Of a stretch of 64,000 nt of DNA, positions 20,874-64,000 are shown piece after piece. The notes under the pieces are model-generated. The model saw nothing but the letters and a program-made list of their open reading frames with translations, searched no databases and had not been told where the DNA came from. The translations under genes were made by a program, and so were the position numbers. The stretch lies in the NCBI GenBank assembly GCA_022574205.1, contig JACZSL010000002.1:11965-75964 (forward strand), read 5' to 3'. This DNA is from Patescibacteria group bacterium. Its GTDB lineage: Bacteria; Patescibacteriota; Minisyncoccia; Phycocordibacterales; JACZSL01. The first letter of the stretch is position 1. Every line of letters begins with the position of its first letter.

Positions 20874-21293
20874 TTACTTCAACAAAAACTCTTTTGCTTT
20901 CCTCAACACCTCCCTCCTATTACTATATTGTATGAGCTTATTTGCTTCCTCAAATGTCGCCCACTTGTAGCTTTGTATTTCACTTTCTTGCGGCACTACT
21001 ACATTGTTTTCTACAAAACCCAGAAAATAATGCACTTCTTTTCTATACGACTTACCTTCATCTCGGACAACAATATATTCCTCTACTACTTTAAAGTCTT
21101 CAACGATGTCGATTTTATGTATTCCTGTTTCCTCGCTGAATTCACGCAGGGCTGTTTGTAGATCACTTTCGCCTTTTTCCTGCTCGCCCTTCGGGAAACT
21201 AAACGAGTCGTTTGTTTGTTGAACTATTAAGTAAAGATTATCACCTTCTACTTTATGGACGGGAATAATACCGCATGATTTTTTGTGTATCAT
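20874..21293 (-). CDS. NUDIX hydrolase
   Basis: Nudix box GEQEKGESDLQTALREFSEETGI. Confidence 0.8.
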   Translation of the reverse strand: MIHKKSCGIIPVHKVEGDNLYLIVQQTNDSFSFPKGEQEKGESDLQTALREFSEETGIHKIDIVEDFKVVEEYIVVRDEGKSYRKEVHYFLGFVENNVVVPQESEIQSYKWATFEEANKLIQYSNRREVLRKAKEFLLK

Positions 21294-21420
21294 CCCGATA
21301 GTAATAGGACACGGACACAGACTGTCCTTGCCACAAGATTAAACTTTCATTAATGTTCGACTTTTCCATTATATTTTGTCTCAGTGTCCGTCCTGCTTGC
21401 CGGCAGGCAGGGATTACTAT
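21294..21420 (-). repeat. ~130-bp repeated leader/MITE-like element, copy 1 (ends exactly at the NUDIX start codon)
   Basis: ~80% identical to 53081-53210; terminal inverted repeats cccgatagtaat/attactat(aagg); internal GC palindrome cctgcttgccggcaggcagg. Confidence 0.6.
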
Positions 21421-21431
21421 AAGGACTCATG

Positions 21432-21513
21432 TGCCCAGGGGGGGACTTGAACCCCCAAGCCGTGAAGCATACGCCCCTCAAGCGTACGAGTTTACCAATT
21501 TCTCCACCTGGGC
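21432..21513 (-). tRNA. tRNA-Leu (GAG), long variable arm
   Basis: Reverse complement GCCCAGGTGGAGAAATTGGTAAAC..TACGCTTGAGGGGCGTA..GGTTCAAGTCCCCCCCTGGGCA. Confidence 0.8.
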
Positions 21514-22188
21514 TTACAGTGTTTTATTTACGACACTTAATGCTTTTTCTATTTTTCTGCGTTTGCGAGATAAGCATATCACGTTTTTGTCGTAATACAT
21601 TTTTTTTAGGATCTTTAGTGATTCACTTTTTGCAAACCTTAATTGGTGTACGTTACCAAATTTGGAGCACACAATATGCCCTTTCACACTGATTAATTTC
21701 CCGAGCTCCTCTTTTATCCAATCTATGTGTTTTCTACTAGCAGAAGCAAAAACAACGTAAAACATGTAGCTTTTTTTCCAACGAGGATCCCAATACGAAT
21801 AAAAACACCCATCCCCATCATGATGACCTCTAAGAAAATCAAAGAAGTATGTTAGTGGAATTTCTATCTTGCCTATAATTTTTGTCTTGGCTGGACTAAA
21901 GCCAGCACCCAAAAGAAATTTGTACAACTTGACACTACCAAACTGAATTCTTGTGGTTCTTTTGCCAGTATGGGTAGAAATTTTGGTTCCAATTTTAACA
22001 TTAATGTTAAGACAACGCATAAAATTTAAAAGTTGTTCTTTGTCCTTGGAGGTTAAGTCAAAATGTCTTCCATCTATCGAGAGACTTCCATCAGTAGCTA
22101 AAAGCCCCATTGCATATGCAAAATTTGGACTCCACTTGGTACTTATTTCACTATTTCTCTTCACATTAGTCGTGCAATAATCATACAA
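21514..22188 (-). CDS. LAGLIDADG homing endonuclease (two-motif, single chain); its stop directly abuts the tRNA-Leu 5' end
   Basis: LLATDGSLSIDG and FLRGHHDGDGCF LAGLIDADG motifs. Confidence 0.75.
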   Translation of the reverse strand: MYDYCTTNVKRNSEISTKWSPNFAYAMGLLATDGSLSIDGRHFDLTSKDKEQLLNFMRCLNINVKIGTKISTHTGKRTTRIQFGSVKLYKFLLGAGFSPAKTKIIGKIEIPLTYFFDFLRGHHDGDGCFYSYWDPRWKKSYMFYVVFASASRKHIDWIKEELGKLISVKGHIVCSKFGNVHQLRFAKSESLKILKKMYYDKNVICLSRKRRKIEKALSVVNKTL

Positions 22189-22265: not shown

Positions 22266-22799
22266 TTATTTCTTCTCTTCTTTTTTTTGTTCAGCTTTCG
22301 GAGTCTCTTCAACTTTTGTATCCGTAGTAGAGCTCTCTTTTACCGGATCTTTCGTTTCTTTTTGTTCTTCTTTGGCTGATTCTGTATTTAGAGCATCTTC
22401 GGCTGCAGCTTTTGCTTTTTCTGCAATATCACTTTCTGTTGCAAGATCCATGAGTCTCATATGGCGCATCTGGCGACGGATTTCACGTGCAACTTTTTCG
22501 CGAATATAATACAGTTTCGATCTGCTGACTTTGCTTCTTCGGACGATTTCAATTTTATCAATCATCGGCGAGTAAAGTGGAAAAACCTTTTCAATGCCGA
22601 AGCCGTCCGAAACACGTCTGACTGTAAAAGTCGCGCCGGCCTCGTTACCGTGCTTCCTAGCAAGTACTAAACCCTCAAATGCCTGCAAGCGAGTCTTTCC
22701 TTTTTCCTGGATTTTTTGCCATACACGCACAGTGTCACCAGCACGAATACCGATGTCACGTCTACTTTTCATATTTACTTGCGATGTTGTGATTGCCAT
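22266..22799 (-). CDS. rplS: Ribosomal protein L19 with a Lys/Glu-rich C-terminal extension
   Basis: ...[58 protein letters not shown]...; start chosen at MAITTSQ by alignment to L19. Confidence 0.85.
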
Positions 22800-23004
22800 A
22801 CGCCTGAATAGGCCAAACTTTAGCACAAGAAGTGCGGTTGTGCAAGAATACGCTAGATTCTGAGCGCTTTTATGGAGCTAAAATCACAGACTATTTTTGA
22901 ATGTCCCAGAAACTGTTTACGAAACGGGTGGATTGTCGACAGCCTACGCTCTCCATCGCTACTTACCTTACCACCCACTACCTACTACGATCGGTTGTAG
23001 TACC

Positions 23005-23044
23005 CACTTCGACTCCCGCCTGCCGGCGGGCAGGAATCGAAGTG
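23005..23044. repeat. GC-rich 40-nt hairpin of the CCTGCCGGC(R)GGCAGG palindrome family (possible terminator of the rluA-like gene / start of the rplS leader)
   Basis: cacttcgactcccgcctgccggcgggcaggaatcgaagtg: 8-bp outer stem plus GC-rich inner stem. Confidence 0.5.
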
Positions 23045-23057
23045 TGTAAGCTGTATA

Positions 23058-23777
23058 TTAATTTCTTAATTCCTTTAACGCTCTTTCAAAATCTTTTGGC
23101 AAAGGTGCTTCGGCGCAAAGAGTTGCCCCACTTGATAGACTTAGAGTAAGCGAATACGCGTGAAGTGCTAAGCGCTCGAAACCAAGCGCACACTCTCGCT
23201 TAGGGGCGTAAAGTGGGTCGCACACAATTGGGTGGTGGAGTGCTTTAAAATGGACACGTAGTTGGTGTGTTCTTCCTGTCTTAGGGCGTGCTTCTACATA
23301 TGAAAATTCGCCGTTCTCTTCAAGCACATCGTATTTGGTCAAAGCTTCCCGAAGTTTGCCGCGCGCGGACTTTTCGGCAGAACGCAGTCGAAAATTTTTA
23401 TTGCTTCGACCAATTGTTAAAGTTATAATTCCTTCCCCATCTTTAGGTACACCATATAAAAAAGCCCTATAGACCTTTGCTACCTTACTTTCTTTAAACT
23501 GCTGTTTCAGATGTGTATAAGCTTTTTGGTTTTTAGCAACAATAAGTACCCCTGATGTGTCGCGGTCAATTCTGTGGACAATACCAGGGCGGTGTATCTC
23601 TTTGTCGTCCATAATTTGGGTCTCTCCGACGTCCTGAATGCCAGGGTACTTTGAAATAAGCCAGTCTGTAACTGAGGGCTCTTTTGTCTTTCCGTCGAAA
23701 TGCACCACAAGCCCTGAGGGTTTGTCGAGCACAAGAGTGTCTATGTCTTCGTAGATAATTTTTGGGCTTTTATTCAC
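23058..23777 (-). CDS. RluA-family pseudouridine synthase
   Basis: S4-like N-terminus; catalytic HRIDRDTSGVLIVAKN. Confidence 0.85.
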   Translation of the reverse strand: MNKSPKIIYEDIDTLVLDKPSGLVVHFDGKTKEPSVTDWLISKYPGIQDVGETQIMDDKEIHRPGIVHRIDRDTSGVLIVAKNQKAYTHLKQQFKESKVAKVYRAFLYGVPKDGEGIITLTIGRSNKNFRLRSAEKSARGKLREALTKYDVLEENGEFSYVEARPKTGRTHQLRVHFKALHHPIVCDPLYAPKRECALGFERLALHAYSLTLSLSSGATLCAEAPLPKDFERALKELRN

Positions 23778-29784: not shown

Positions 29785-29817
29785 ACGTGTACACGTCAGG
29801 ACGTACGTCCTGACGTG
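29785..29817. repeat. Perfect palindromes ACGTGTACACGT and CACGTCAGGACGTACGTCCTGACGTG (copy A)
   Basis: Sequence agctacgtgtacacgtcaggacgtacgtcctgacgtggg, between divergent tRNA-Ser and the ORF at 29886; the 26-bp core recurs at 36361. Confidence 0.6.
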
Positions 29818-29885
29818 GGTGTCTTGCGTCACTAATCACACGTTTTTGTTCCGCAAAATTAACTCATTGCGCTATACTTATAGTA

Positions 29886-34165: not shown

Positions 34166-34641
34166 CGATCGAGGGCACGATATAAAATAATGCCGGCGGT
34201 TGTTGCGACATTGAGTGATTCTTTTTTTCCATGCATGGGTATAAAAATTGTATGGTCGCACCTCTCTAAAAGGGCTTGTGACAGGCCTCGAACTTCATTT
34301 CCAAATACAAAGGCTGCTTTCTTTGGTGTGTTAAATTTTTTGTAGTCAGTTGCGTCTTTTCCCTGTTCAACCGCAACTACGACGAAATTGTCTTTCTTTA
34401 AACGACGCAAAAGGTTTCCTATGTTGGAAATGTGTTCCCAAAAAACATTTTTTTCCGTGCCGAGTGCCGTTTTGTGAAGATCACTCCGTATGCGTCCAAA
34501 CCTGTCACGTGGCGTGGGTGAATATCCCGAAAGATATATCGTATCAATACCGATTGCGTCAGCGACTCTAAAAATGGCGCCGACATTCTGGACGCTCCTC
34601 ACGTTGTGGAGCACGATGTATGAAATATGTTTCTTTTTCAT
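34162..34641 (-). CDS. SpoU/TrmH-family RNA 2'-O-methyltransferase (TrmL-sized)
   Basis: ...NVGAIFRVADAIGIDTIYL...; ...FVFGNEVRGLS... Confidence 0.75.
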   Translation of the reverse strand: MKKKHISYIVLHNVRSVQNVGAIFRVADAIGIDTIYLSGYSPTPRDRFGRIRSDLHKTALGTEKNVFWEHISNIGNLLRRLKKDNFVVVAVEQGKDATDYKKFNTPKKAAFVFGNEVRGLSQALLERCDHTIFIPMHGKKESLNVATTAGIILYRALDR

Positions 34642-34753
34642 CCCGATAGTGTCAGGTCGCGATCATCGCCTACCTACTGTTTAGTGTTTATATCGTTGTG
34701 GTTTCGACTTTTTGTATTCATATTATATCTTTACCTCGTGACCGCGGACACTA

Positions 34754-35200
34754 TTGGGATTCATCCTATATTTATACGAAATATGCTACTATGACGCCAT
34801 GCTTAATGTTTTTCCGGAACTGCTTTTCTTGTCATTTTTTGCGCCGTTAGTGTTGCGTGCCGTTTTAGGTTTCGTATTGTTGTCATATAGTTTGAATCGT
34901 CTCTATAGGCGTAAGCGTGAGTTTGAAGGTCTTTTTCTAAATCATTTTCCCTTAAATGGGAAAACACTGTTGTTAGCGGTAGGTATTCTTGAACTTGTGT
35001 TTGGCTTGGGATTGATTGCTGGCCTCTACACACAAATAATTGCGCTTGGCGTTATTCTTCTCTCACTAACGGCCATTCTTGGTAAAAATCCCGTACTTTT
35101 ATTTAGGAGTAGTCGGCTCATCTACTTTTTTATGTTAGGAATTTCGATTTCACTTCTATTGTCAGGGGCAGGGGGTTTTGCGTTTGACCTTCCACTTTAA
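34754..35200 (+). CDS. hypothetical polytopic membrane protein
   Basis: 148-aa ORF with four predicted TM helices. Confidence 0.35.
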   Translation: MGFILYLYEICYYDAMLNVFPELLFLSFFAPLVLRAVLGFVLLSYSLNRLYRRKREFEGLFLNHFPLNGKTLLLAVGILELVFGLGLIAGLYTQIIALGVILLSLTAILGKNPVLLFRSSRLIYFFMLGISISLLLSGAGGFAFDLPL

Positions 35201-35207
35201 CGTTGCT

Positions 35208-36029
35208 TTACTGATAAGAAGCGATTGCTCTTTCTAGTATCTCCCTTTTTTCAAGATTCTGTTTCCATATACTATTCGAGCGGTTTCCGTTTATGCACAC
35301 GCCGGGAGAGAAATTGATTTCTTTTTGGAATTTTTGTAGATTCTCTTTTCCAACAATAACAACCTCATTTGGCTTTTGAATAGACGAGCCAATATCAAAA
35401 TCGAGAAGGAGTATTTTAATAGTTTCCAAAACGGAGGTGTCTTTTTGGTAGCCGCGCACTCTGCGTGATCTATTATTAAAATTCATACATCCTTCATCGT
35501 CAAAAAATGCTCTTAAAAATTCGCGCTTAAGATGTTTTGGAAATGTATTTACGTTTGAAAAAAGCTCCTGGGATTTCTTTTTTATATGAGCGGCAAGTGC
35601 AACATTAAAATAACTAATTCGGAGTACTCCTGTAGACTTATTACAATAACGAGTGGGTTCAAAGTCGTATATTTCTTTCATAATAGTCTCAACTCTTTTA
35701 ATCAAACTCGTGCTTCTATTATTATAAATACAGCCATGGGTGTTTATTTCTCCATCAAACAAAAAATGAGAAATGAGAAGTACCATGTTCGTATTCCATG
35801 TTGAGAATTCTTTAAAACTTCTTGAACTTTTTCCTTTCCGGTTTTCAGACATCCTAATAATCCTTGTGCGTGACGCGTCCTGGATCATTCTCAATTTTTG
35901 AGTGCTTAGAGGAATGTCGCGTATGTGAAAATAGACTGATGTTTTCGGTCGGCCTGTGATTTTAACAATCTCAGGTAGGGTGTGATCCTGACTTCGTAAG
36001 ACAACGCATTGCTGTTTAAAATTATTCAT
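35208..36029 (-). CDS. LAGLIDADG homing endonuclease (two-motif); its start codon lies 2 nt after the tRNA-Lys 3' end
   Basis: LISHFLFDGEINTHGC and FLRAFFDDEGCMNF motifs. Confidence 0.7.
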   Translation of the reverse strand: MNNFKQQCVVLRSQDHTLPEIVKITGRPKTSVYFHIRDIPLSTQKLRMIQDASRTRIIRMSENRKGKSSRSFKEFSTWNTNMVLLISHFLFDGEINTHGCIYNNRSTSLIKRVETIMKEIYDFEPTRYCNKSTGVLRISYFNVALAAHIKKKSQELFSNVNTFPKHLKREFLRAFFDDEGCMNFNNRSRRVRGYQKDTSVLETIKILLLDFDIGSSIQKPNEVVIVGKENLQKFQKEINFSPGVCINGNRSNSIWKQNLEKREILERAIASYQ

Positions 36030-36030
36030 G

Positions 36031-36103
36031 TCCGCCCAGCAGGACTCGAACCTGCGACCTTGAAGTTAAAAGCTTCCTGCTCTACCAGCTGAGCTATGGG
36101 CGG
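36031..36103 (-). tRNA. tRNA-Lys (TTT)
   Basis: Reverse complement CCGCCCATAGCTCAGCTGGTAGAGCAGGAAGCTTTTAACTTCAAGGTCGCAGGTTCGAGTCCTGCTGGGCGGA; anticodon loop CTTTTAA; unusual C1:G72. Confidence 0.75.
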
Positions 36104-36285
36104 ATGTATTATTATCGCACGAGCTACCAAGACAGCTATGGGCGGATGTATTATTATCGCACGAGCTACCAAGACAGCTATGGGCGGATGTATTATTATC
36201 GCACGAGCTACCAAGACAGCTATGGGCGGATGTATTGTTCGACTGTTATTTACCAAAACAGCTATGGGCGGTTGCCTTTATATAG
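36094..36285. repeat. 42-bp tandem direct repeat array: 3 identical copies, a diverged 4th and a partial 5th; each copy begins with the first 10 nt of tRNA-Lys
   Basis: Unit ctatgggcggatgtattattatcgcacgagctaccaagacag at 36094, 36136, 36178, 36220 (diverged), 36262 (partial); each unit carries a TAATAAT -10-like box. Confidence 0.85.
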
Positions 36286-36355: not shown

Positions 36356-36391
36356 ACCCACGTCAGGACGTACGTCCTGACGTGGGTTTCG
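36356..36391 (-). terminator. 36-bp perfect palindrome (copy B of the CACGTCAGGACGTACGTCCTGACGTG element), likely intrinsic terminator of the holA-like gene
   Basis: aaacccacgtcaggacgtacgtcctgacgtgggttt; on the minus strand the hairpin is followed by TTTT. Confidence 0.55.
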
Positions 36392-52331: not shown

Positions 52332-53063
52332 ATGATATCAGGATTATTTCACACATTCTTCTACAACCCTATATACAACGGGCTTGTTTTTTTGATAGAC
52401 ATCGTTCCACTTGCTGATGTTGGTGTAGCAATTATTCTTATTACTGTTTTAGTTAAGCTTCTCCTCTTCCCTATTTCACAAAAGGCTGTGCGCACACAGT
52501 TCATCATGAGGGGGTTACAGCCACAACTCGAAAAGATTAAAGAAAAGTATGCAAAGGACAAGCAGGCGCAAGCGCGCAAAACAATGGACCTTTATAAGGA
52601 GAAAGGAATTAATCCATTTTCTGGAATTCTTCTTATTTTCATCCAAATCCCGATTATTTTGGCACTCTACTGGGTATTTTTCCGTGGCGGACTACCAGAA
52701 ATAGATCTAAGCATTCTATATTCTTTTATAAACGAACCAAGTAAAATTAATATGAATTTTCTCGGGTTGATTCCTATGGATGGCCGCAGTATCGTTCTTG
52801 CGTTTCTTGCAGGACTGTCACAATATTTCCAGATTAAACTTTCATTGCCAGACCTCAAAAAAAGAGACGACAAAGCAAGCCTTAAGGATGATTTTGCACG
52901 GAGCTTCCAACTTCAAATGCGTTACATGCTCCCGCTATTTATATTCGGTTTTTCATATTTCGTTTCAGCAGCAGTTGCATTATATTGGTTTACAAGTAAT
53001 ATATTTGCCATTGGGCAAGAGATTTTCTTAAGAGGAAGGCTGGCTAAAGAAAAGAAAGACTAA
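52332..53063 (+). CDS. yidC: Membrane protein insertase YidC/Oxa1 (short form)
   Basis: ...LYKEKGINPFSGILLIFIQIPIILALYWVF... Confidence 0.9.
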   Translation: MISGLFHTFFYNPIYNGLVFLIDIVPLADVGVAIILITVLVKLLLFPISQKAVRTQFIMRGLQPQLEKIKEKYAKDKQAQARKTMDLYKEKGINPFSGILLIFIQIPIILALYWVFFRGGLPEIDLSILYSFINEPSKINMNFLGLIPMDGRSIVLAFLAGLSQYFQIKLSLPDLKKRDDKASLKDDFARSFQLQMRYMLPLFIFGFSYFVSAAVALYWFTSNIFAIGQEIFLRGRLAKEKKD

Positions 53064-53080
53064 CTAAAAACAAAATAAAT

Positions 53081-53210
53081 CCCGATAGTAATCCCTGCCT
53101 GCCGGCAGGCAGGATGGACACTAAGACAATATATTATGAGAAAGTCGATTATCAAAAAAACTTAATCTTGTGGCAAGGATAATTTCAGTTCGTGTCCTAT
53201 TACTATCGGG
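53081..53210 (+). repeat. ~130-bp repeated leader/MITE-like element, copy 2, with perfect 12-bp terminal inverted repeats and a perfect 20-bp GC palindrome; ends exactly at the jag start codon
   Basis: cccgatagtaat ... attactatcggg|ATG; cctgcctgccggcaggcagg at 53094-53113; ~80% identical to the 21294-21420 copy in the same orientation relative to the downstream gene. Confidence 0.65.
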
Positions 53211-53706: not shown

Positions 53707-54966
53707 CTATTTACCTAAGCGCAGGCTCCAAAGAGAGGAGTCTCTTTTGTTTATGAAAAAGAGGTATTCTCCAGACTCACTTACAGCAAGATTAACCATA
53801 TCAATAGTGAAATCTCTCTCTTGCCTAAGGTCAACGAGCAGGCGTGTAACATCTCTCGACACATCAATTTCCCAAATACTGTCGGAGAAAGAAATTTTTC
53901 CCTGATACCAACTATCAGGGTATAAGTCCTCTGAAACCACGAATGGCACACCACAGTAGACAATATTCCTATTAACGGGGCTCCACCCACACTTTTCTGG
54001 GAGTGTTTTAACAGAGAATAAACGCATATCGCGCGTTTTTAGTTCGAATAAGAAAAGACCAAAATCACCACTAGTGCTTTTAGACAATAGAATACGGTCT
54101 CCATACGGGCTTGTGTTTACTGTTAATCCCAAAATACCATCCAGGAGCTTTTCTGGAACAGCACCACCCCCCTCCTCAAGAGAGTATACTAAGCCAGCTA
54201 CTAGACCAGAAGCTTTTGTGGTAAAGAAGATTTTTCCACTATTTGTTATCTCGTAGAGGAGTTCGTGGAGGAATGAACGATATACCGTTTCCACACCAGA
54301 GCCGTTGAAAGAAGATTTTTTAAGCAAAGTCTCGCGATCTCCACGAATAGTATAGAAAATATTTTCACCAACATCATCAGTTGTGAAGAAATCTATGTCA
54401 TCCGGAAGAAAACGTCCATCGATCGTAGAGACAGACGTGCCACTAACAATGTGAGCATTAAACGTCTTTATAACATCGTTTTCATCCAGATAACGAAGTA
54501 CAACCCGTGTAGCATTTTTATTCCAAATCGCCTCATAAACACCTGGAATTGTGGTGTTTGTAACGCGTACAGACTCAATTTTTTCCGGATCAACTTGGTA
54601 TATATTCCCTGTTATACGCTCAACGAAGCGCACAGACGGAGCTCCGTCGCTTGTTGTTGTGGCAACAAATCCAGCCACAGGTGTTGTTGTTAGTTGCTGT
54701 AGCACACTTTCTCCAAACTGACGCCTTTTTAACACAAGATTATCATCAAAACCAAAACCAACAAACCCACCCTCATTTTCAAATGTGAGTGGTGGGCGCT
54801 CTTCGTCTAAACCAAGTACAGAATCATCAGAAAAGAGACCACCAAAAAAACCAACATTTTCTTGACTATCGCCAGATGACCCCCCACCATCCCTTTGTAT
54901 TAGAAAAAACCAACCCAAAATTCCAAGGATCAATGTGATAATAAATATAATTAGTATTTTTTTCAT
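53707..54966 (-). CDS. hypothetical membrane-anchored extracellular protein (first listed gene of the T4SS-like cluster region)
   Basis: Start moved to MKKILIIFIITLIL (TM anchor); Gly/Ser-rich linker; beta-rich body. Confidence 0.4.
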   Translation of the reverse strand: MKKILIIFIITLILGILGWFFLIQRDGGGSSGDSQENVGFFGGLFSDDSVLGLDEERPPLTFENEGGFVGFGFDDNLVLKRRQFGESVLQQLTTTPVAGFVATTTSDGAPSVRFVERITGNIYQVDPEKIESVRVTNTTIPGVYEAIWNKNATRVVLRYLDENDVIKTFNAHIVSGTSVSTIDGRFLPDDIDFFTTDDVGENIFYTIRGDRETLLKKSSFNGSGVETVYRSFLHELLYEITNSGKIFFTTKASGLVAGLVYSLEEGGGAVPEKLLDGILGLTVNTSPYGDRILLSKSTSGDFGLFLFELKTRDMRLFSVKTLPEKCGWSPVNRNIVYCGVPFVVSEDLYPDSWYQGKISFSDSIWEIDVSRDVTRLLVDLRQERDFTIDMVNLAVSESGEYLFFINKRDSSLWSLRLGK

Positions 54967-55007
54967 GATGTAAATAAATACAGAATGTACATATAATACA
55001 ATGAAAC

Positions 55008-55919
55008 TTAGCCGCCAGCACCAGGACGATAGCACGGGGTGGCCGACACAAACAACGGTCTCGAGGACGCGTCTCTCCGTGCTTGTTCACAAAGCAGAGA
55101 ATCGTTAACAGGTACGGGACACTGCTGTTGTGTTAGACGTCTGTCGTCAGACCCCACCGACGTAGTGATATCATAACAAAATTCCCTACCTATTCCTCTA
55201 GAGCCGTCGGCTGTCGAGAAGCACCCTTCTTCTATACCATAAGAGATAAAAACTTGTCTTGGACGGGCCTTATACTCTTCTTCCCCAGCAAGGCATTGTT
55301 CCAAGGTAGTCCATATGGTTTCTTCACCAGAAAAAAATCCAAAACTACCACATTCTATATCAGCAAATCCACCAGCATCGTCGCCAACAAAACAAAAACC
55401 TTGATCTATTATTACTCTGTTGGCATATCCTGTCAGCGCCGCGGCTTCCTCAGCACGACTACGATCATCAAGTTCTATTCCAGAAACTACACCACCAACC
55501 TTGTCTTGAAGTGTGCCAAAAAAGTCGAAACTAAGAATCTTTGGGTTAATTGTTTGCAGAACCAGAACGGAAAGAAGAACAATTAGGAGTCCCCCAAACA
55601 CACCAGTCATACATTTTTTCGCCGCCTCTTTTGAGCTTATTGCTTCGCTCATCATATACTGAAAACCACAAATCATTAACTTGATTACTGCAAGAACTGC
55701 AATTATAGAAATGAAAAGAACAAAAATATTGTTAAAATATTGCACCAATCCGGAAGGACCCCCAGTATTCACAGAACTCCCAACACCAGGAAGCGGGGAA
55801 ATAGGCGTATACGATTGCGCAAACACAGTGTCTACAAACAACAACATTAGAATACAACACAACGCAAACGTTAATATGTAAGTGGTTTGTGCGGACTTGA
55901 ATTTACTTGGAAAAAACAT
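55008..55919 (-). CDS. VirB2/TrbC-like pilin candidate with a ~170-aa Cys-rich C-terminal domain
   Basis: Signal peptide (…VFA|QS), two hydrophobic helices separated by a short charged loop (LVQYFNNIFVLFISIIAVLAVIKLMICG / MTGVFGGLLIVLLSVLVL), then a domain with ≥9 Cys. Confidence 0.35.
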   Translation of the reverse strand: MFFPSKFKSAQTTYILTFALCCILMLLFVDTVFAQSYTPISPLPGVGSSVNTGGPSGLVQYFNNIFVLFISIIAVLAVIKLMICGFQYMMSEAISSKEAAKKCMTGVFGGLLIVLLSVLVLQTINPKILSFDFFGTLQDKVGGVVSGIELDDRSRAEEAAALTGYANRVIIDQGFCFVGDDAGGFADIECGSFGFFSGEETIWTTLEQCLAGEEEYKARPRQVFISYGIEEGCFSTADGSRGIGREFCYDITTSVGSDDRRLTQQQCPVPVNDSLLCEQARRDASSRPLFVSATPCYRPGAGG

Positions 55920-56965
55920 TATTCAAATAAAACATTAAACGAGGTCTCCGCTTCTTGCAAAACTTTAAACGGAAGGTTGTTGTTTATTACTTTTAATAAT
56001 ACCTCTGCCTGACCCGTTTCTACACCCTCACGACGAAACGTAATTTCGTTTCCCTGTTCTTCTCTGGGGATATCAATATCTTTTCTGTCTACACGCCATC
56101 TATAATTTAATAGCCTCCCAAAAACATCCTCAAGGGAAAAGAAATAAGGTTCTGCGCGAAAAACAACTTCGTCTTCTGTAAAATTATACAAACCCTTTAT
56201 TACAGAACCGTACACCACACCCTCAAGAGGCCGCTTTTCATAGATTAGAATCTCTTGTGCGTATACCGGGACAACAGCAGTACTCTGCGCGCGCACAGAG
56301 CCATTTGGTGACGAAACGGAAACAGACACAATAAGCGGCACTTCACGAAGAATCTCGTTTTGGAGCACAATACTTTGCCTGCCAACTCCGGACGCTTTCC
56401 CCAAAACAACACCGCTCTGACTCCACGTATAAACAAGCTTTTTTGGATCTATCTTCTTTCCGGCACTATCTGCAATTTCAGGCATAGCAACAAACGTTAT
56501 TAGACCCGCGGACGGAGCAAGAGCTTTCCCTCTATAAAAAGGGGGTGTATACGAGAATGCTTCCCATACAAGATTTATTTCACTAGGAATTACCTCAACC
56601 TCACGAACAAAAAGTTCTCCTTTATCCGTTTCGATCACAACACTCACCCTACTGGAACTTCCAAGTCCTCGTGTGGTGAAACGAGCACGACTCTCCCCAA
56701 CACCAACAAGCCGCACAGTTCCGTTTAGTGTCCACGTTATATTAGAAAGTCCCAGATCAATCGTTTCACTTTCCAAAGTAACAACAACCATTTCGTATAA
56801 CCCCGGGGTTTTTGGTGAGAGAGTTATGGATATTGAGCCAGTTGCCGCTTGCGCATGCGTCTCTAAGGCAAGCATGAGCACAAAAAGTAAGCTAAAAACC
56901 ACAATAACCGCCACACAATAGACTCGAATTGGATTATATGTATTAATCGGGAGAATATGTTTCAT
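55919..56965 (-). CDS. hypothetical secreted protein
   Basis: N-terminal signal/TM; beta-rich; start overlaps the upstream stop (operon packing). Confidence 0.4.
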   Translation of the reverse strand: MKHILPINTYNPIRVYCVAVIVVFSLLFVLMLALETHAQAATGSISITLSPKTPGLYEMVVVTLESETIDLGLSNITWTLNGTVRLVGVGESRARFTTRGLGSSSRVSVVIETDKGELFVREVEVIPSEINLVWEAFSYTPPFYRGKALAPSAGLITFVAMPEIADSAGKKIDPKKLVYTWSQSGVVLGKASGVGRQSIVLQNEILREVPLIVSVSVSSPNGSVRAQSTAVVPVYAQEILIYEKRPLEGVVYGSVIKGLYNFTEDEVVFRAEPYFFSLEDVFGRLLNYRWRVDRKDIDIPREEQGNEITFRREGVETGQAEVLLKVINNNLPFKVLQEAETSFNVLFE

Positions 56966-56976
56966 AGAATAATATA

Positions 56977-57555
56977 CTATATACCTTGTACAAAAGCATT
57001 AAAACCAGCTTTCTTGCTTGCCATTTTTCTAAAGCGTTCATTATTCTCTAGGACGCGCACTAACACAAGACTTACGGACGCCATGGGGAGTATTCCTGTG
57101 AAAGGCAGAATCTCGAGAACCATACTTACAACGAAAACTACAAGTTTGCGTGAGGTGAGTTTAACGTCATTCATCATATAATATATAAGGAGAGTAAACG
57201 TAATCATCAGACCAAAAATCACACTAAAAATGATTAAAATAACCGAAAACGTAAACACAATATCTAACATATCTTTCAACAACGTAAGAAACAACATCGC
57301 TATAAATAAAGGGCCGGTTAATTTTTTTTGTGATTGTTGCGGTTTTCTTTGTTTCTCCGCTTCACGTCCTTTTCGTTTTTTCAGTCTTTGTTGCGCGATA
57401 CGCGCAACCTTTTCAGCACCCACAACCATTGCCTCCACACTCGCCTGCTCAGGGGCTCTCTGCGCCGCACGCGCAGGTCTGTGCATTGAACCGTAAGCAG
57501 CTGCTCGCGTCCCGATTCTTCGAACCCTTTGCAAATTTTCATTTTTATCTGCCAT
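56977..57555 (-). CDS. hypothetical membrane protein (basic N-terminus plus 3-4 TM)
   Basis: Composition and hydropathy only. Confidence 0.35.
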   Translation of the reverse strand: MADKNENLQRVRRIGTRAAAYGSMHRPARAAQRAPEQASVEAMVVGAEKVARIAQQRLKKRKGREAEKQRKPQQSQKKLTGPLFIAMLFLTLLKDMLDIVFTFSVILIIFSVIFGLMITFTLLIYYMMNDVKLTSRKLVVFVVSMVLEILPFTGILPMASVSLVLVRVLENNERFRKMASKKAGFNAFVQGI

Positions 57556-57556
57556 A

Positions 57557-59401
57557 TTACTTATCTATATTTTGTGGTGCGTTTTGAGCGTCCCCATGTT
57601 CTGCTTTCAGCTCCTCTTTAGCTTTTTTAATAGCAAGCAGTTGTGATGGGTCTGAGGTAATAATCTGGTCTTCAGTGTACGAGGCAATAATCTTAATTGC
57701 GACGTGTTTCAGCCCGGCAAAGAAGATTCCCTCACCCACACCACTCTCAAGTAAAAGATATTTTTCCTCATCAGTCAAATGGAATGTTTTTTGGAGTAAG
57801 TCAACAGATGTTGGAGACTGTTTCATAAGAAGCTGAATCGAGGAGTTTGTAAGCATCGGTGTTCCGTACGGACTTCGTAAGAAGTCCTCAACGTCTTGAG
57901 TAATAGTCGCAAGGCCAAGATAATATTTTCTTCCGCGTTTCGCCATACTATAAAGGAAACTTGCGGTATCTTCTGATTTCATCATCCACCACGCCTCGTC
58001 AATAACTAAAAGTCTTTTACGAAGATCACGCCTCACCGCGTTCCAGATAAAGTGTGTCACGATATACATCGCAATACTTTTGAGGTCATCCTCCATATCT
58101 CGTACTGAAAAAACAACGAATTTTTTATTAATATCAACATTGGTTGGCCTATTAATAAAGTCAGACCACGAGCCTTTAGTATATTTCTCAAGACGCTGAA
58201 CCAGACTTTCAGCCCCCTCCATTCCAGCAAGCACAAGCTCGAAATCGGACAGTAAAGGAGGCTCAACCCCTTCAAAATTCGAATCAGCAGTAATATCTTT
58301 CAAAGCATATGTTTCCGTGATTGCACGGTCCACAATAGAATCTTCCTCAGGAGTAAGACCACCAAACATCATACGAAATAGACCAACAAGATTTATTACC
58401 TGTGAGCGAAGTACATCAGTAGGAGCTTCGTCCTCTCGAGGTATTGGTAAATCAAATGGGTTAATGTGGTGTTCCGAAGAAAGGGAAATTTTAAAGTATC
58501 TTCCACCGGTTGCATTCGAAAGATACTCGTATTCACGCTCTGGGTCAATTACGATGACGTCAATATCGAACATAAGCGATCTCAGAATCTCAAGCTTCAT
58601 TGCATAACTCTTGCCAGAACCACTTTTTGCGAACACCACAGAGTTGTAATTCTCAAGAGAAAAACGATCAAAGAGCACTAAACCGGAATTATGCCTGTTC
58701 ACTCCGTATAGAATTCCTCGATCTGAAGTTAAGTCAAATGAAATAAACGGAAAAATACTAGAAAGCGGAGACGAATTCAATTTAGAGTGAACGCTTAAAA
58801 GATCGATCCCAAGGGGGATAACACTCATAAAACCCTGTTCTTGTTGGAAAAGCGCAGGCTTTATGTAAATAAGTTTCGAGTCAAGAAGTCCTTTTAGCTC
58901 CGACTCCAACTTGTCTAGATCTTCAGTCGAATTTCCATATATAGTTATATATACACCAACATCAAACAATTTTTCCTTCGCCTGCATAAGATCATCACGT
59001 AATTGCTCTAGGTCTTGATGCGCGGTATCAAGTTTTGGATCGCGAACAAGACCTTTATCCTGCCGCATATGGATCTGACTTTGCACTTCAGCAACTTTTT
59101 TCTGAAAACGTTTTAAGGCAACTGTTGTATCAACAGGGTGTATAAAAATCGAAATGTCTATCACACGATCAAGATTTATCACAGGAGAGAACCAGCTTTG
59201 GTTTAGAAATCTTGGATATGAAATAACAAAGAAAGTGCGGGCTATTTTCTCACCCAAATGAAGCTCGCGTGGCGACACCCTAAGCGCACTAGGAGCAATA
59301 ACATCTTTCAACTGAAGCACTCCGGCTTCATAAATTTGTTGAGGCAACACCGGTGCGCCCATCCCTTTCTTTTTTGGTTTAAATATATCTAAGAGACCCA
59401 T
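57557..59401 (-). CDS. virB4: VirB4/TrbE/CagE-family type IV secretion ATPase
   Basis: N-terminal ...LGEKIARTFFVISYPRFLNQSWFSPVINL..SIFIHP; Walker A VVFAKSGSGKSYAMK; Walker B/arginine-finger region LLVIDEAWWMM...GRKYYLGLATITQ. Confidence 0.85.
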   Translation of the reverse strand: MGLLDIFKPKKKGMGAPVLPQQIYEAGVLQLKDVIAPSALRVSPRELHLGEKIARTFFVISYPRFLNQSWFSPVINLDRVIDISIFIHPVDTTVALKRFQKKVAEVQSQIHMRQDKGLVRDPKLDTAHQDLEQLRDDLMQAKEKLFDVGVYITIYGNSTEDLDKLESELKGLLDSKLIYIKPALFQQEQGFMSVIPLGIDLLSVHSKLNSSPLSSIFPFISFDLTSDRGILYGVNRHNSGLVLFDRFSLENYNSVVFAKSGSGKSYAMKLEILRSLMFDIDVIVIDPEREYEYLSNATGGRYFKISLSSEHHINPFDLPIPREDEAPTDVLRSQVINLVGLFRMMFGGLTPEEDSIVDRAITETYALKDITADSNFEGVEPPLLSDFELVLAGMEGAESLVQRLEKYTKGSWSDFINRPTNVDINKKFVVFSVRDMEDDLKSIAMYIVTHFIWNAVRRDLRKRLLVIDEAWWMMKSEDTASFLYSMAKRGRKYYLGLATITQDVEDFLRSPYGTPMLTNSSIQLLMKQSPTSVDLLQKTFHLTDEEKYLLLESGVGEGIFFAGLKHVAIKIIASYTEDQIITSDPSQLLAIKKAKEELKAEHGDAQNAPQNIDK

Positions 59402-59650
59402 GTTTGTACCGTTATAAACTAATATTAAATTTAATCTCCTTCATAATATTCTTTTTATAATATTGATGTATTTTAATAATATATGATAAATTTTTAATTT
59501 CTATCGGCACCTGTACCGCCTGCCCCGTTGTGAGCTCTACTCTACTTTGGGTTATAAATTAATGATAAGTCTAACTTCTCTAATAAGATATCTTTTGTAA
59601 TGTGGATGTTTATTGGTAATATCTTGTCAGTATTTAATTTCATATCGGTA

Positions 59651-60313
59651 CTATTTTTCAAGTGGAATTGGTTTTGATAACTCACCAGGGTTAAAGAGCC
59701 TGTAAAATAATTCAATAATTTCTTCCGTGCCGAGACTTACAACCCGAATACCTGTTCGAGCAAGACCCTGCTCTACAACCGACACCCTCTGCTCTATTTG
59801 AGAACGGCTTTTCTCGAAAGCCACGGCTTTAGCCTCACTTTTTGTTTTCTTCCCCTCCCCTTTTTTCTCTACAAGTTCGAGTAGAGAAAACAGTCCTTTT
59901 TTTGCCTGCACAACAGAAGCAGAATATGGAATTACAATAAAAAAGTGTTTTGACATAATATTTGTATCTTCCACAAACTTCTTCACGAACTCAATATATT
60001 CACGTGTCTGGATCTGCATTAAATCATTTGTTTGCGCCTTATACCGCTCTTCAAGGAGCGCGATATAAGGGCGAATATCAAGATCGCGTGACTGAATGAA
60101 GATCTGCACCGGAAACTCAAGGGAATTAAGAAAGTTTTGGAATTGGGAAAGAATTGCTTCTTGCTCGTCGGCACCTTTAAGCGCAAAGTTTAATGAACTC
60201 GTCATAACTATAGCTCGCATCGAACCATCTTTCAGTATTACGATTCCATCACGCACCTCTTCAATTGGTACGAAGTCCTGTGTCGCCCTTGCATCTTTAA
60301 TTGATATTGCCAT
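59651..60313 (-). CDS. hypothetical soluble T4SS-cluster protein (weak resemblance to VirB4 N-terminal domain)
   Basis: ...DFVPIEEVRDGIVILKDGSMRAIVMTSSLNFALKGADEQEAILSQFQNFLNSL...; no TM. Confidence 0.3.
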   Translation of the reverse strand: MAISIKDARATQDFVPIEEVRDGIVILKDGSMRAIVMTSSLNFALKGADEQEAILSQFQNFLNSLEFPVQIFIQSRDLDIRPYIALLEERYKAQTNDLMQIQTREYIEFVKKFVEDTNIMSKHFFIVIPYSASVVQAKKGLFSLLELVEKKGEGKKTKSEAKAVAFEKSRSQIEQRVSVVEQGLARTGIRVVSLGTEEIIELFYRLFNPGELSKPIPLEK

Positions 60314-60731
60314 CGTCCTGTTTGTTATTAATATCTAAACTCTCTTGAATATCTAAACTCCATGATAAATCTTTTAATTTACTGTCAGAAAGCCTTGGAA
60401 CAAACAAACCGAGATCCTCCTCCCCTCCCTCATCCCTCTTCTTAATTTTTCGGTCTTGTTTTTTCCACACATATAAGCGTTTTCTTCCGGCATAATGGAA
60501 AGCAGCCTCCAACACTTCTATAAAAGGTCTATCGTTTACCTTATAGAATGCGAGGGCCGCACCAAGAGCAACAATGGGCGCAGCAAGAAGCACAGCGAGC
60601 ACGAGCGGAAGAAATGAATACAAAACAAAAACAATACCGGCTGAGCCGACAATGTAGACAAACTGCTTCACGGTGAGCGGTCCGAAAATTTTATCTTCAA
60701 CATCAATATATTGTGGTACTTGAAAACGCAT
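60297..60731 (-). CDS. PrgI/VirB3-like small membrane protein
   Basis: MRFQVPQYIDVEDKIFGPLTVKQFVYIVGSAGIVFVLY... two TM; PrgI-family N-terminal pattern; overlaps neighbouring genes. Confidence 0.5.
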   Translation of the reverse strand: MRFQVPQYIDVEDKIFGPLTVKQFVYIVGSAGIVFVLYSFLPLVLAVLLAAPIVALGAALAFYKVNDRPFIEVLEAAFHYAGRKRLYVWKKQDRKIKKRDEGGEEDLGLFVPRLSDSKLKDLSWSLDIQESLDINNKQDDGNIN

Positions 60732-60743
60732 ATATTTATTCTA

Positions 60744-61169
60744 CTATATTGGCTCGCGATATGGATCCACGGCGTATTCGTGACTCGGTCTCTTTTTGTC
60801 TTCAATTACAGACCCGACATCTTTATTTGACTCACGCTCTTTATCCCTATTCAAAAACGCCTCTTCTAAAAGCTCTCTATTTGGAATCAAGATATTTTCA
60901 TTAATTACCTTAACAATTTTTTCTGTTCGATCTCGCGAGATTTGTGCCCTATGTCTGATGTTTGTAACTAAACCATTAGGATTTTCAAGGCCCAATAGAA
61001 CAAGCATTATTTCATTTTCCACAGCAATTCGTTGGTGATCTTGAAGCGGGTGACCCTCTGCCACCCTAGATAACACACCCTCAAAGTGACTAGAAACAAA
61101 TAAATCCCGTAGCGCTTGTGGCAACTCTAAAAATGTTTTTTGCAATGTATTACTTAATTCCTCGTTCAT
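60744..61169 (-). CDS. hypothetical protein, paralog B of a tandem pair
   Basis: Shares the LPxxL...ExxLLxLLGxE N-terminal pattern with the 61182-61745 product. Confidence 0.35.
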   Translation of the reverse strand: MNEELSNTLQKTFLELPQALRDLFVSSHFEGVLSRVAEGHPLQDHQRIAVENEIMLVLLGLENPNGLVTNIRHRAQISRDRTEKIVKVINENILIPNRELLEEAFLNRDKERESNKDVGSVIEDKKRPSHEYAVDPYREPI

Positions 61170-61181
61170 TTTACTTGTTAG

Positions 61182-61745
61182 TTATTGGTTTGGCGTTTGA
61201 GGTTGTTGGTCGTTCGCCGACCCATTAAAGTTTCTCACCAACACTATTAACCTTTCTGTTTTATCTAACTTTTCACGCAATTGATTAGCAATATCCTGTC
61301 GTTCTCTGGACACAAACCACGCCGGCGAGTAGGATCTTTTAGCTTGCGGCATAGATTTCTCTAAAGTATCGACAACACCCCCTTCCTTTTCAGCCATATT
61401 GCTTCCTGTTTCTCCAGCAAGAGCTTTTTGTATTTTACCAATTTCTTCTAACGATTCATCAATCGAACGAAAAACTTCCATATGTACATGTCCTGCGATT
61501 GTGCTTGCTAAATCACTGTCCAGACCTGGAACACTTTTCAGATTAAACTCGTAATTAGACATATGTTCAATACCTAACAATATTAACAACGTTTCTTCTG
61601 TGATTGCTTCAAGCTGTTCTTTTGGAATTTTGTATTGCGCTAGTACTTGTGAAAGTCTCCCCCTTTGCACGATTGATCCTACCACTTGTTGTAAATCAGC
61701 AGGCAATCTCTTGTAATTATCTATTAGTATTTGTTGTTCGTCCAT
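61182..61745 (-). CDS. hypothetical protein, paralog A of a tandem pair
   Basis: LPADLQQVVGSIVQRGRLSQVLAQYKIPKEQLEAITEETLLILLGIEHMSNY... Confidence 0.35.
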   Translation of the reverse strand: MDEQQILIDNYKRLPADLQQVVGSIVQRGRLSQVLAQYKIPKEQLEAITEETLLILLGIEHMSNYEFNLKSVPGLDSDLASTIAGHVHMEVFRSIDESLEEIGKIQKALAGETGSNMAEKEGGVVDTLEKSMPQAKRSYSPAWFVSRERQDIANQLREKLDKTERLIVLVRNFNGSANDQQPQTPNQ

Positions 61746-61754
61746 AAAATTTTT

Positions 61755-63656
61755 CTAGGTGTCTTTGCCCGTGTCTATTGGATTTTTAGCAAAATAATCC
61801 TTCAAACCATCATCGATGCCTTTTTCCTTTCTTTTTATGCTTTTTCTTTGCGCTTTAAGTTCTTTGATTTCGTTATCAAGCAATGTCAGATCTTTCTCTT
61901 TCTCACTTAGGACTTTCTGTGCATTATCCAGTTCGTATTGAATCTCGTTAGCATTTGAGTGATTTCCATCAGAGCGCGCTTGAATGTAAGCTTTTCTTTT
62001 TGTGTCAACATCCTGCTCAGCTTTGGATTTAGCGTCTTTCTTGTCTTTATAATCTTCTTTTGTTTTAAAGTCGTCGATTTGTTTTACAATCCCCCTGTTA
62101 TGCTCTCTTTCTTTTAATTTCCCTATCTTTTGCGCCGCTTCTTTGTCTCTACGAGAAGTCCACAGTCCTAAACGAGATGGAGACTTTTTATCTCTCAAAT
62201 TTTCGGCATATTTTTCCCTTTCTGTGTCTGTCATACCTAAGCTATCAGCAAATTTCTCATCTTTCTTTGTTTTATCATCCATCTTTTTTGCAAAACCTCC
62301 TTTTCCTCCACCCTTAACCCCCTTAATTCCAACAAGCCCTAGCGCTTTTGATACCCCTTTTACATTTCTTATATCTCCACTTGACCCCGCAATACCCTGA
62401 AAAGCTTTTAATTGCACTCTAGCAAATCTGCCACCTTCAGCCGCGCGTTTTTGCAAACTTTCATTTTGAGCCACTCTACTCGCTATCCGTCCGGCAGTTT
62501 GTCTATAAGCAAGAGCTGCTGCTCCAGCTCCTCCAGCTCCCACAGCAACTCCCACAGCAACCCCACCTTTCGCAAATCTTTTGGTAATTTTTGCAGCTGT
62601 AGCACCCGCTTCTCCAGCCGCAGCCTTGGCAATGTTAAGCGCGGCAATCAAAAGACCAATGATTATGGCAAAATTCATTAATATTCCGGCAGATTCAGAA
62701 AGCAACGAGTTATTATTCTTCCCCACACCAGAGCTTATTGCGGTTCCTAACTCTTGTTCAGGCGTAATCCAGCCAGCGAGAAAATTAGCGTCCAGAGTGA
62801 TAACCATAATCGCCGCTATTAGTACAAGAAATACAGGAACCACCAAGACATTTCCGATAAGCGCCGCAACCCACTTTTTCCAAAACGCCTGAGCTGCGCC
62901 GGTAGGAAGAATTGCCGCGACAAAAGCAACAGGGGAAGCAATAAGAACAATAATAAGAACAACCGTCCTCTGTACGAAAAGAAGTCCAGCTGATAAAAAT
63001 ACAAACCCGGAAATAAGAAGAAAGATTGTTCCCATAAGGTAAAAAGTAAACGTTTTCCGCGCTTCAATTTCTACACCTTCGTAGATGGAAGATGTTTTCA
63101 AGCTTGTAGACAATATCTCACCAATCGATGCCTTTCTTGTTAAGGTCCCCGAGTCGGTTGTAACCGTAACTTCAGGCGTAAGTGTTTCATAAATAAAACT
63201 CCCCGTTATATTTCCAGCATCAATCACCGCGCCAGTTAGGAAAAAACTAAAGTTTACAAGAAGTGCCGCTATAATAACATGAGTCACCAACCGCTTTGTT
63301 TGTACCCCGCCAATCTGAAGCACTGTCATGAAAGCGATGTAAAGGAGAATAAAAATGAATGCCATATTGGCAAGGTCGCGAAACACTTCCCATCCAACCC
63401 TTATCCCGCCAAGCTGATAGAATGAAGAATCAAGCGTTACTCGGAGAGCTATATCAAGGAAAGCCGCTCCAGCGCCGGAAATCCAACTACCGAACGTAAG
63501 CATAGCATCGCCAACAGCTTCTATTACGTCATTATGTACGATAGCGTAAACTGGTTCCGGCGTAAAAAATCCTCCAAAAGAAAGACTTAAAATAAGAACA
63601 ATAAACACTTTCGCAAGAGCCTTTTGTGCTTTTGTGCTTTTTTGAAAAATGTACAT
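61755..63656 (-). CDS. VirB6/TrbL-like polytopic membrane protein with a long charged C-terminal tail
   Basis: Signal/TM, then ≥6 TM helices, Gly/Ala-rich segment, ~200-aa Lys/Glu-rich coiled-coil tail. Confidence 0.6.
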   Translation of the reverse strand: MYIFQKSTKAQKALAKVFIVLILSLSFGGFFTPEPVYAIVHNDVIEAVGDAMLTFGSWISGAGAAFLDIALRVTLDSSFYQLGGIRVGWEVFRDLANMAFIFILLYIAFMTVLQIGGVQTKRLVTHVIIAALLVNFSFFLTGAVIDAGNITGSFIYETLTPEVTVTTDSGTLTRKASIGEILSTSLKTSSIYEGVEIEARKTFTFYLMGTIFLLISGFVFLSAGLLFVQRTVVLIIVLIASPVAFVAAILPTGAAQAFWKKWVAALIGNVLVVPVFLVLIAAIMVITLDANFLAGWITPEQELGTAISSGVGKNNNSLLSESAGILMNFAIIIGLLIAALNIAKAAAGEAGATAAKITKRFAKGGVAVGVAVGAGGAGAAALAYRQTAGRIASRVAQNESLQKRAAEGGRFARVQLKAFQGIAGSSGDIRNVKGVSKALGLVGIKGVKGGGKGGFAKKMDDKTKKDEKFADSLGMTDTEREKYAENLRDKKSPSRLGLWTSRRDKEAAQKIGKLKEREHNRGIVKQIDDFKTKEDYKDKKDAKSKAEQDVDTKRKAYIQARSDGNHSNANEIQYELDNAQKVLSEKEKDLTLLDNEIKELKAQRKSIKRKEKGIDDGLKDYFAKNPIDTGKDT

Positions 63657-63695
63657 TATGTTGTATTCAAGCCGGAAAAATTATCTGCTCTAAAA

Positions 63696-64000
<305 letters not shown>

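Follow-up and report, generated by a model that had tools for sequence, protein, structure and literature searches.

How does one and the same unit of about 130 bp come to stand, without any spacer, in front of the start codons of unrelated genes? For the DNA analysed here, a 64-kb stretch of a Patescibacteria genome (the whole of which is referred to as the window), the original prediction had offered two answers, a mobile, MITE-like element with gene starts as its landing sites or a shared cis-regulatory leader or riboswitch-like RNA. The window matches the MAG GCA_022565145.1 and several ENA and Logan assemblies, and its genes include the dnaA/dnaN region, yidC, polA, ruvABC, tRNA synthetases, seven tRNAs and two LAGLIDADG ORFs.

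The two elements first noticed, which had been put at about 80% identity, were found where they had been placed and are 84% identical from end to end over 131-132 nt (mean column identity 86% with flanks counted in). Their direct fusion to a start codon was likewise borne out, as both end with GTGTCCTATTACTATCGGG followed by ATG, that of a NUDIX gene at 21293 (minus strand) and that of jag/khpB at 53211. A third copy, 61-64% identical to the others, was detected in the window using a repeat finder and an nhmmer profile, and it ends with ACTATCGGG directly before the ATG of spoU/trmH. The three downstream genes were assigned by Pfam to a NUDIX hydrolase, a KH/R3H protein (jag/khpB) and a SpoU/TrmH methyltransferase. 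When the 64-kb window was searched using nhmmer with a profile of the three copies, exactly three full copies were obtained (E = 3e-45, 3e-44 and 3e-30), and the terminal 19-mer and the GC palindrome had 0 matches in 100 shuffles, which places them far above chance. Given that copy 1 recurs in five independent assemblies (L118-L122), identical or with 1 SNP, it is not an assembly artefact. The three copies are as follows.

21294..21425, minus strand: copy 1, 132 nt, between tRNA-Leu(GAG) and the NUDIX gene
53080..53210, plus strand: copy 2, 131 nt, between yidC and jag/khpB
34642..34759, minus strand: copy 3, 118 nt, a diverged subfamily without the GC palindrome, between the divergent doxX and spoU/trmH

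Each copy is bounded by terminal inverted repeats. Their consensus is TCCCGATAGTAAT / ATTACTATCGGGA, with 13/13 positions matching in copy 2, 11/13 in copy 1 and 12/13 in copy 3, where the inner triplet is different. The original prediction had given these repeats a length of 12 bp; they are present, and measure 13 nt when the outer T/A pair is counted. It had also described a start sequence common to copies 1 and 2, which holds only in part since copy 1 begins with TCCTTATAGTAAT and not with CCCGATAGTAAT, having two mismatches in its left repeat. The outer 10 nt of the repeats are common to all three copies and the inner three positions covary within each copy, being AAT/ATT in copies 1 and 2 and GTC/GAC in copy 3. 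That both ends of each copy change together is what would be expected if one transposase binds both ends.

21413-21425 and 21294-21306, minus strand: terminal inverted repeats of copy 1
53080..53092, plus strand: left terminal inverted repeat of copy 2, TCCCGATAGTAAT, with its partner at 53198-53210 (plus the A of ATG)
Two ends of copy 3: terminal inverted repeats TCCCAATAGTGTC / GACACTATCGGG
53094..53113, plus strand (copy 2), and 21392-21411 (copy 1): GC palindrome CCTGCCTGCCGGCAGGCAGG, which copy 3 does not have
53132-53137 and 53141-53148, plus strand: conserved core of copy 2, TATTAT and AAAGTCGA, facing the downstream gene
21368-21373 and 21357-21364, minus strand: conserved core of copy 1, TATAAT and AAAGTCGA
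34722-34727 and 34704-34711, minus strand: conserved core of copy 3, TATAAT and AAAGTCGA

Besides the ends, the sole features common to both subfamilies are the TATAAT/TATTAT box and the octamer AAAGTCGA, which keeps a constant distance from the right end, the spacing from the octamer to ACTATCGGG being 53-54 nt in 3/3 copies. Within the core there is in addition a motif similar to ATGAR, which has the form ATGAG in copy 2, ATGAA in copy 3 and ATGGA in copy 1. The coding capacity of the element is nil, as the frames entered from the left ATG give unrelated short peptides with stops within the element, and a small ORF starting at the internal ATG was rejected as a conserved feature because frame and peptide vary between the copies.

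A palindrome related to that of copies 1 and 2 stands isolated at 23015-23034. It lies in the interval 22827-23057, between an rluA-like gene (23058-23777) and rplS (22266-22826, minus strand), where the window has an insertion of about 205 nt relative to three related contigs (L134, L136 and L128) in which the gap between the two genes is about 26-53 nt. Through this insertion the pseudouridine synthase has received a replacement C-terminus, and the ancestral 3' terminus of the rluA-like gene persists downstream as a remnant. The inserted DNA also contains a long hairpin formed around the palindrome CCCGCCTGCCGGCGGGCAGG, akin to the one in copies 1 and 2, and may represent a distinct mobile unit that has this palindrome in common with them. 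Another short repeat family is represented by a perfect 29-nt palindrome, CACGTCAGGACGTACGTCCTGACGTGGGT, which is found in identical form at 29792-29820 and 36356-36384, in both cases intergenic and near tRNA-Ser/tRNA-Lys.

The history of the three junctions could be followed in relatives, which were found by protein searches with the three downstream proteins and whose contigs were compared at the orthologous junctions. All three loci are without the element in close relatives (91-97% amino acid identity of the flanking gene) and have a single ATGAA or ATGAG there; the element-free orthologous junctions are 0-34 nt long. The element was absent from the orthologous positions at all three loci in every relative compared with the exception of L133, which is treated below. 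In the window the same 5-mer stands on both sides of the element, with a match of 5/5 in copy 3 (ATGAA), 4/5 in copy 1 (ATGAG/ATGAT) and 4/5 in copy 2 (ATAAA/ATGAA), and the empty sites hold one copy of it each. The empty sites are decisive evidence that each copy is an insertion. The boundaries are ambiguous by one base, so that a 4-bp duplication TGAR around a fully symmetric TCCC...GGGA element is an equally valid description. The duplications are the following.

21426..21430, minus strand: left duplication of copy 1, ATGAG, beginning 2 nt past the tRNA-Leu discriminator base
21289..21293, minus strand: right duplication of copy 1, ATGAT (4/5 match), including the NUDIX start codon
53075..53079, plus strand: left duplication of copy 2, ATAAA, degenerate from ATGAA
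53211..53215, plus strand: right duplication of copy 2, ATGAA, including the jag start codon
34760..34764, minus strand: left duplication of copy 3, ATGAA, with the leaderless-type promoter TATAAA-N6 of the ancestral site retained ahead of it
34637..34641, minus strand: right duplication of copy 3, ATGAA, including the spoU start codon

At the site of copy 2, the relatives without the element (L124, L125 and L126/L127, with Jag identities of 91, 86 and 79%) have yidC and jag overlapping by ATGA (...AAACAAC-ATGA-AAAAC...), while the window reads ...AAACAAA-ATAAA/TCCCGATAGT...ACTATCGGG/ATGAA-AAAC, the slashes marking the ends of the element. The left ATAAA contains a TAA that is in frame with yidC, at the position of the former TGA stop, and the present yidC stop is a newer TAA (53061-53063) located 12 nt upstream of it. 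At the site of copy 3, the element-free relatives (L145, L132 and L144, with spoU orthologues 91, 77 and 76% identical) have a doxX-spoU spacer of 34 nt with the end TATAAATA(T/G)AGG-ATGAA-AA. The sequence of the 91% relative L145, ...cgtataaatataggATGAAAAAGAAA, corresponds exactly to the left flank plus the right flank of the window, where ...TATAGG-ATGAA/TCCCAATAGT...CGGG/ATGAA-AAAG is found. The left ATGAA of copy 3 now opens a 13-codon ORF with its stop within the element.

At the site of copy 1, NUDIX orthologues without the element were found at 97% amino acid identity (95% at the nucleotide level) in ten contigs (L134-L143), and at 85% and 65% among the others (L128, L130 and L131). In these empty sites the ATG lies two bases past tRNA-Leu, ...CCTGGGCAC-ATGAG-ACAC... 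(tRNA-Leu...GGGCAC-ATGAG-ACAC), and the window has ...GGGCAC-ATGAG/TCCTTATAGT...CGGG/ATGAT-ACAC. An ATG 1-2 nt after a tRNA 3' end is recurrent, being seen for tRNA-Leu/NUDIX in relatives (L128, L130 and L134) and for tRNA-Lys/LAGLIDADG in the window (21426-21432 and 36027-36031). It is a speculative possibility that tRNA 3' processing could yield near-leaderless mRNAs at such places.

Several other features were observed around these tRNA genes and next to jag. The two LAGLIDADG ORFs (21514-22188 and 35208-36029, minus strand) are free-standing and each abuts a tRNA gene; the first ends right before tRNA-Leu (21431-21513) and the second starts 1-2 nt past tRNA-Lys (36030-36103) with cATGAA. 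Since L128 has rplS followed by tRNA-Leu without a LAGLIDADG ORF, these ORFs look like insertions. That they might be part of the element was rejected, given that L134 has the ORF without the element and L128 has neither. Compared with L134, tRNA-Leu(GAG) (21432-21513) is 85% identical, the adjacent NUDIX gene 95% at the nucleotide level and the LAGLIDADG ORF 89%; the differences in the tRNA are concentrated in the stems, and there could be a recombination tract around it. The intact tRNA-Lys is immediately preceded by four 42-nt repeats in tandem (36082-36281), each consisting of a GATAAT-type promoter stretch and the first ~10-25 nt of tRNA-Lys. The region 53707-63656 next to jag is a mostly Pfam-less cluster with a VirB4/TraG-type P-loop ATPase (57557-59401) and a PrgI-family protein (60297-60731), which from its gene content looks like a type-IV-secretion or conjugation-like module. 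At the end of the window there is a GGC/GGT-rich repeat with a period of 18-21 nt (63688-63896), which in the sense of the minus strand is located just upstream of the 633-aa ORF 61755-63656.

In L133, whose spoU is 78% identical at the amino acid level, an element terminus (...AAGGATAATTTTCTATCGGG/ATGAAAAAG) occupies the same spoU junction. The contig breaks inside the repeat and starts 27 nt before ATGAAAAAG, so that 27 nt are visible. This terminus resembles the interior of copy 2 and not that of copy 3, and relatives that are closer as well as equally distant have empty sites. The likeliest reading of these sequences is an independent second insertion at the same spoU site.

A dispersed repeat of this type could also have arisen if a promoter region had been copied from one paralogous locus to another, by segmental duplication or by gene conversion, the repeat having no mobility of its own. 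Copies 1 and 2, the most alike, are indeed similar over their whole length, as would be expected from such copying, but the similarity stops precisely where the inverted repeats end, and no relationship exists between the flanks (tRNA-Leu/NUDIX, yidC/jag and doxX/spoU). Moreover, the bracketing 5-mer is duplicated here and single in relatives. The original prediction had been set against the case of only two copies lying in paralogous surroundings; a third copy was found and the flanking genes are not related, and we regard this explanation as practically untenable.

We conclude, with a probability of roughly 85%, that this repeat of a Patescibacteria (CPR) genome is a MITE-type, non-autonomous transposable element, non-coding and 118-132 bp long. 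This assignment follows from its small size, its lack of coding capacity, its dispersal, its inverted repeats and target duplication, and its polymorphism between close relatives. In particular, its size is below ~400 bp, there is neither a transposase nor a conserved ORF within it, and three copies are present per 64 kb in unrelated contexts, with presence/absence polymorphism and a partial copy in L133. The mobile alternative of the original prediction, an element landing at gene starts, is thus supported by the inverted repeats, the ATGAR duplication and the empty sites at three loci. Regarding the source of the mobility, no transposase was identified within the window using Pfam and no parent IS with matching ends was found. 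A scan of genome contigs with the pattern AAAGTCGAN{45,62}ACTATCGGG was too permissive, returning 117 loci that were all due to chance according to nhmmer, and a scan of metagenome contigs with AAAGTCGAN{53,54}ACTATCGGGATG gave one match, a chance match within a coding region. Viral contigs scanned with both inverted repeats gave no match, and neither did plasmids searched using blastn with copy 2.

Two other kinds of small element were considered and rejected. Elements of the PATE type, derived from IS200/IS605, lack both terminal inverted repeats and a target duplication and have subterminal hairpins at both ends; here inverted repeats and a duplication are present, and the GC hairpin is near the left end only, in copies 1 and 2. 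Integron attC sites have R''/R' core sites, RYYYAAC...GTTRRRY, at their ends. The present element ends with TCCCGATAGT / ACTATCGGGA and its junctions are without GTTRRRY.

On this reading the element integrates at 5'-ATGAR-3' and duplicates this target, and a transposase from elsewhere in the genome, acting in trans, would move it. The right copy of the duplication rebuilds an intact ATG straight after the element, and the left copy keeps the prior context, i.e. the yidC stop, the tRNA-Leu end or the old spoU promoter. Given that the target includes an ATG and an overlapping TGA, insertions that hit start codons can survive, and given that the right duplication restores the ATG, the element gives the impression of a leader that is joined to the start codons of unrelated genes. 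As the ATGAR duplication copies both start and stop, the ATGA overlap of yidC and jag was split with neither gene being destroyed.

A mobile cassette could be moved otherwise than by a DDE transposase, e.g. by a site-specific recombinase of the tyrosine or serine type for which ATGAR would be the recognised core. The apparent duplication would then be the crossover core, and the asymmetry of this core would fix the orientation. Compatible with this are the 5-nt core at both junctions, the orientation relative to ATGAR that the three copies share with the partial one in L133, the ATGAR-like motif in the internal core, and the presence of a variant of different structure at the spoU site of a second lineage, suggestive of high site specificity. 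However, 13-nt inverted repeats that change together between subfamilies are a hallmark of transposase-bound ends, Pfam revealed no recombinase gene near any copy in the window, and the common orientation of three copies has a chance probability of 0.25. We therefore consider movement by such a recombinase unlikely and retain the MITE interpretation.

The other alternative of the original prediction was that of a shared cis-regulatory 5' leader or riboswitch-like RNA, controlling translation by sequestration of the start codon. An ATG directly follows every copy, the RNA of the whole element folds with a long terminal stem in which the A of AUG is paired, and the fold z-scores relative to shuffled sequences were -6.0 for copy 2 and -3.5 for copy 3. 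These properties would suit a regulatory leader, but the antisense strand folds similarly (sense/antisense z-scores of -6.0/-5.0, -1.9/-2.6 and -3.5/-4.2), and about equal folding of both strands is expected of DNA inverted repeats and not of a selected RNA. Nor do the mismatches in the stem favour either strand, as copy 1 has a sense U-G wobble and copy 3 a sense A-C mismatch that is G-U in the antisense. The orthologous genes in relatives (76-97% amino acid identity) do not have the element upstream, and NUDIX, jag and spoU belong to no common pathway. The Rfam search that had been proposed as a check (Rfam 15) returned nothing for any copy at the gathering score or at E <= 1. Taken together, the lack of an Rfam match, the equal folding of the strands and the orthologues without the element indicate that the unit is not a riboswitch or conserved leader, and we assign this reading a very low likelihood. 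The long stem over the start codon, which had also been predicted, does form in silico on a read-through transcript, as a by-product of the inverted repeats of the MITE-type element.

The position of the copies at start codons was compared with the distribution of potential targets. Among the 280 ATGAR sites in the window, 13 are at annotated starts and 43 are non-coding sites outside starts. The probability of 3/3 copies at starts is then p ~ (13/56)^3 = 0.013 among non-coding or start-codon ATGAR sites, a value that applies if selection removes coding insertions. With ATGAR as the sole requirement, it is somewhat unexpected that all three copies have the same orientation and are all on start codons. 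The bias may be due to selection, to a longer target or to a different, orientation-specific integration mechanism, and three events cannot separate selection from a longer target. It is conceivable, although we would put it forward only tentatively, that the element, beyond being a passive MITE, is a portable 5' expression cassette that seeks start codons in a host whose translation starts are mostly leaderless or coupled, its integration machinery recognising gene starts (ATGAR plus further context). Such recognition would explain why all insertions, including the apparent second one at spoU, are at starts in one orientation. If this were true, the TATAAT-AAAGTCGA core would replace the native signal, and leaderless, tRNA-linked or coupled genes would become independently transcribed and leadered.

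An insertion at the ATG also has consequences for expression. A Shine-Dalgarno-like motif precedes 3/48 genes in the window, and a TANNNT hexamer, often with GGC ahead of it, is present 6-8 nt before the ATG in 19/48 genes. This pattern suggests that leaderless transcription is widespread in the host Patescibacterium. As native signals are rarely of the Shine-Dalgarno type and often consist of TANNNT near the ATG, a gene loses its native expression signal when the element inserts at its ATG. Depending on the locus, the gene would be cut off from translational coupling with yidC, from co-transcription with tRNA-Leu or from a leaderless promoter. Given that the three genes are intact and that copy 1 persists across assemblies, their expression presumably continues.

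Judging from motifs, the genes are probably expressed from the gene-facing -10-like box (TATAAT/TATTAT) in the element, with a leader of ~65-75 nt. Viewed as a promoter-carrying upstream repeat, the element has this box in all copies and no -35 or RBS, and the ATG comes from the target duplication. No -35 was found for the internal TATAAT and a consensus promoter scan made no call on the box, which is also without the GGC context found before many native -10 boxes. A leader starting from the internal box would lack the left arm, so that the long stem could not form; in read-through transcripts the 13-bp terminal stem would form, pair the A of AUG and partly occlude the AUG. Other candidate signals were set aside. 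The TACTAT of the right repeat (TACTAT-CGGG-ATG) is unlikely to be a leaderless promoter, being 4 nt before the ATG compared with the native peak at 6-8 nt, and so is TATTAC at 7 nt, which is without the final T and absent from copy 3. The one strong promoter-like match of the consensus scan, antisense in copy 2 (TTGCCA-17-GATAAT), was dropped because it is not conserved in copies 1 and 3. A consensus terminator scan called no terminator at the GC hairpin. If the internal box is a promoter, the element would be a natural case of promoter delivery to leaderless, tRNA-co-transcribed or coupled genes.

How does the element relate to known repeats? Correia elements make a TA duplication and have 26-bp inverted repeats. 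The present element has an ATGAR duplication, 13-nt repeats and the termini TCCCGATAGT, and no sequence similarity to them; furthermore, every copy found here is exactly on a start codon, in a host Patescibacterium that is almost without Shine-Dalgarno motifs. It resembles the Correia elements (CREE/NEMIS), Neisseria MITEs of ~100-160 bp (PMC3184786, Table 1), in size, in being non-coding with inverted repeats, a target duplication and long hairpins, and in its frequent location 5' of genes. Outward promoters that are functional are also described for Correia elements (Siddique et al. 2011, cited in PMC3184786). ERIC/IRU, RUP, Nezha and MITEAba12 are dispersed, intergenic, imperfect palindromes of 107-170 bp (PMC3184786; PMC6382973), and share with the present element the small size and the presence/absence polymorphism between strains (PMC3184786; PMC6382973). 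They differ from it in termini and duplications, that of MITEAba12 being 9 bp (PMC6382973), and targeting of a motif containing the start codon is not described for those MITEs in PMC3184786 and PMC6382973.

Repeats located directly at the ATG of the downstream gene, as here, are also known from Neisseria (REP2) and Borrelia (IR repeats), where they stand immediately upstream of genes and bring the promoter, RBS and ATG (PMC3184786, sections 3 and 12). In contrast to the present element, whose ATG comes from the duplicated target and which has no RBS, REP2 and the Borrelia IR repeats have their own RBS and ATG and internal stem-loops instead of terminal inverted repeats, and no target duplication or empty sites are described for them in PMC3184786. 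Putative mobile promoters are upstream sequences of 50-100 nt, copies of which have spread in front of unrelated genes of one genome (Matus-Garcia et al. 2012, PMC3488235). Those were defined by similarity alone, whereas here the insertion events and the vehicle, made up of the inverted repeats and the target duplication, are resolved and the promoter is putative. A full-text search of the literature, the coverage of which is incomplete, found no description of MITEs in Patescibacteria (CPR). The element is best described as a new MITE family of a known kind, distinguished by its sequence, its ATGAR duplication, its position at start codons and its host.

For annotation, these results mean that such an element can wrongly be taken for a riboswitch or a conserved leader, and for assembly that it can break contigs, as in L133 where the contig ends inside the repeat. 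Patescibacteria (CPR) genomes are small and streamlined. The duplication of ATGAR provides a way for insertions to stay harmless at overlaps of stop and start codons, and the three recent insertions in 64 kb, absent from close relatives and located at the first codon of housekeeping genes, show mobile DNA to be actively reshaping gene starts in this lineage.
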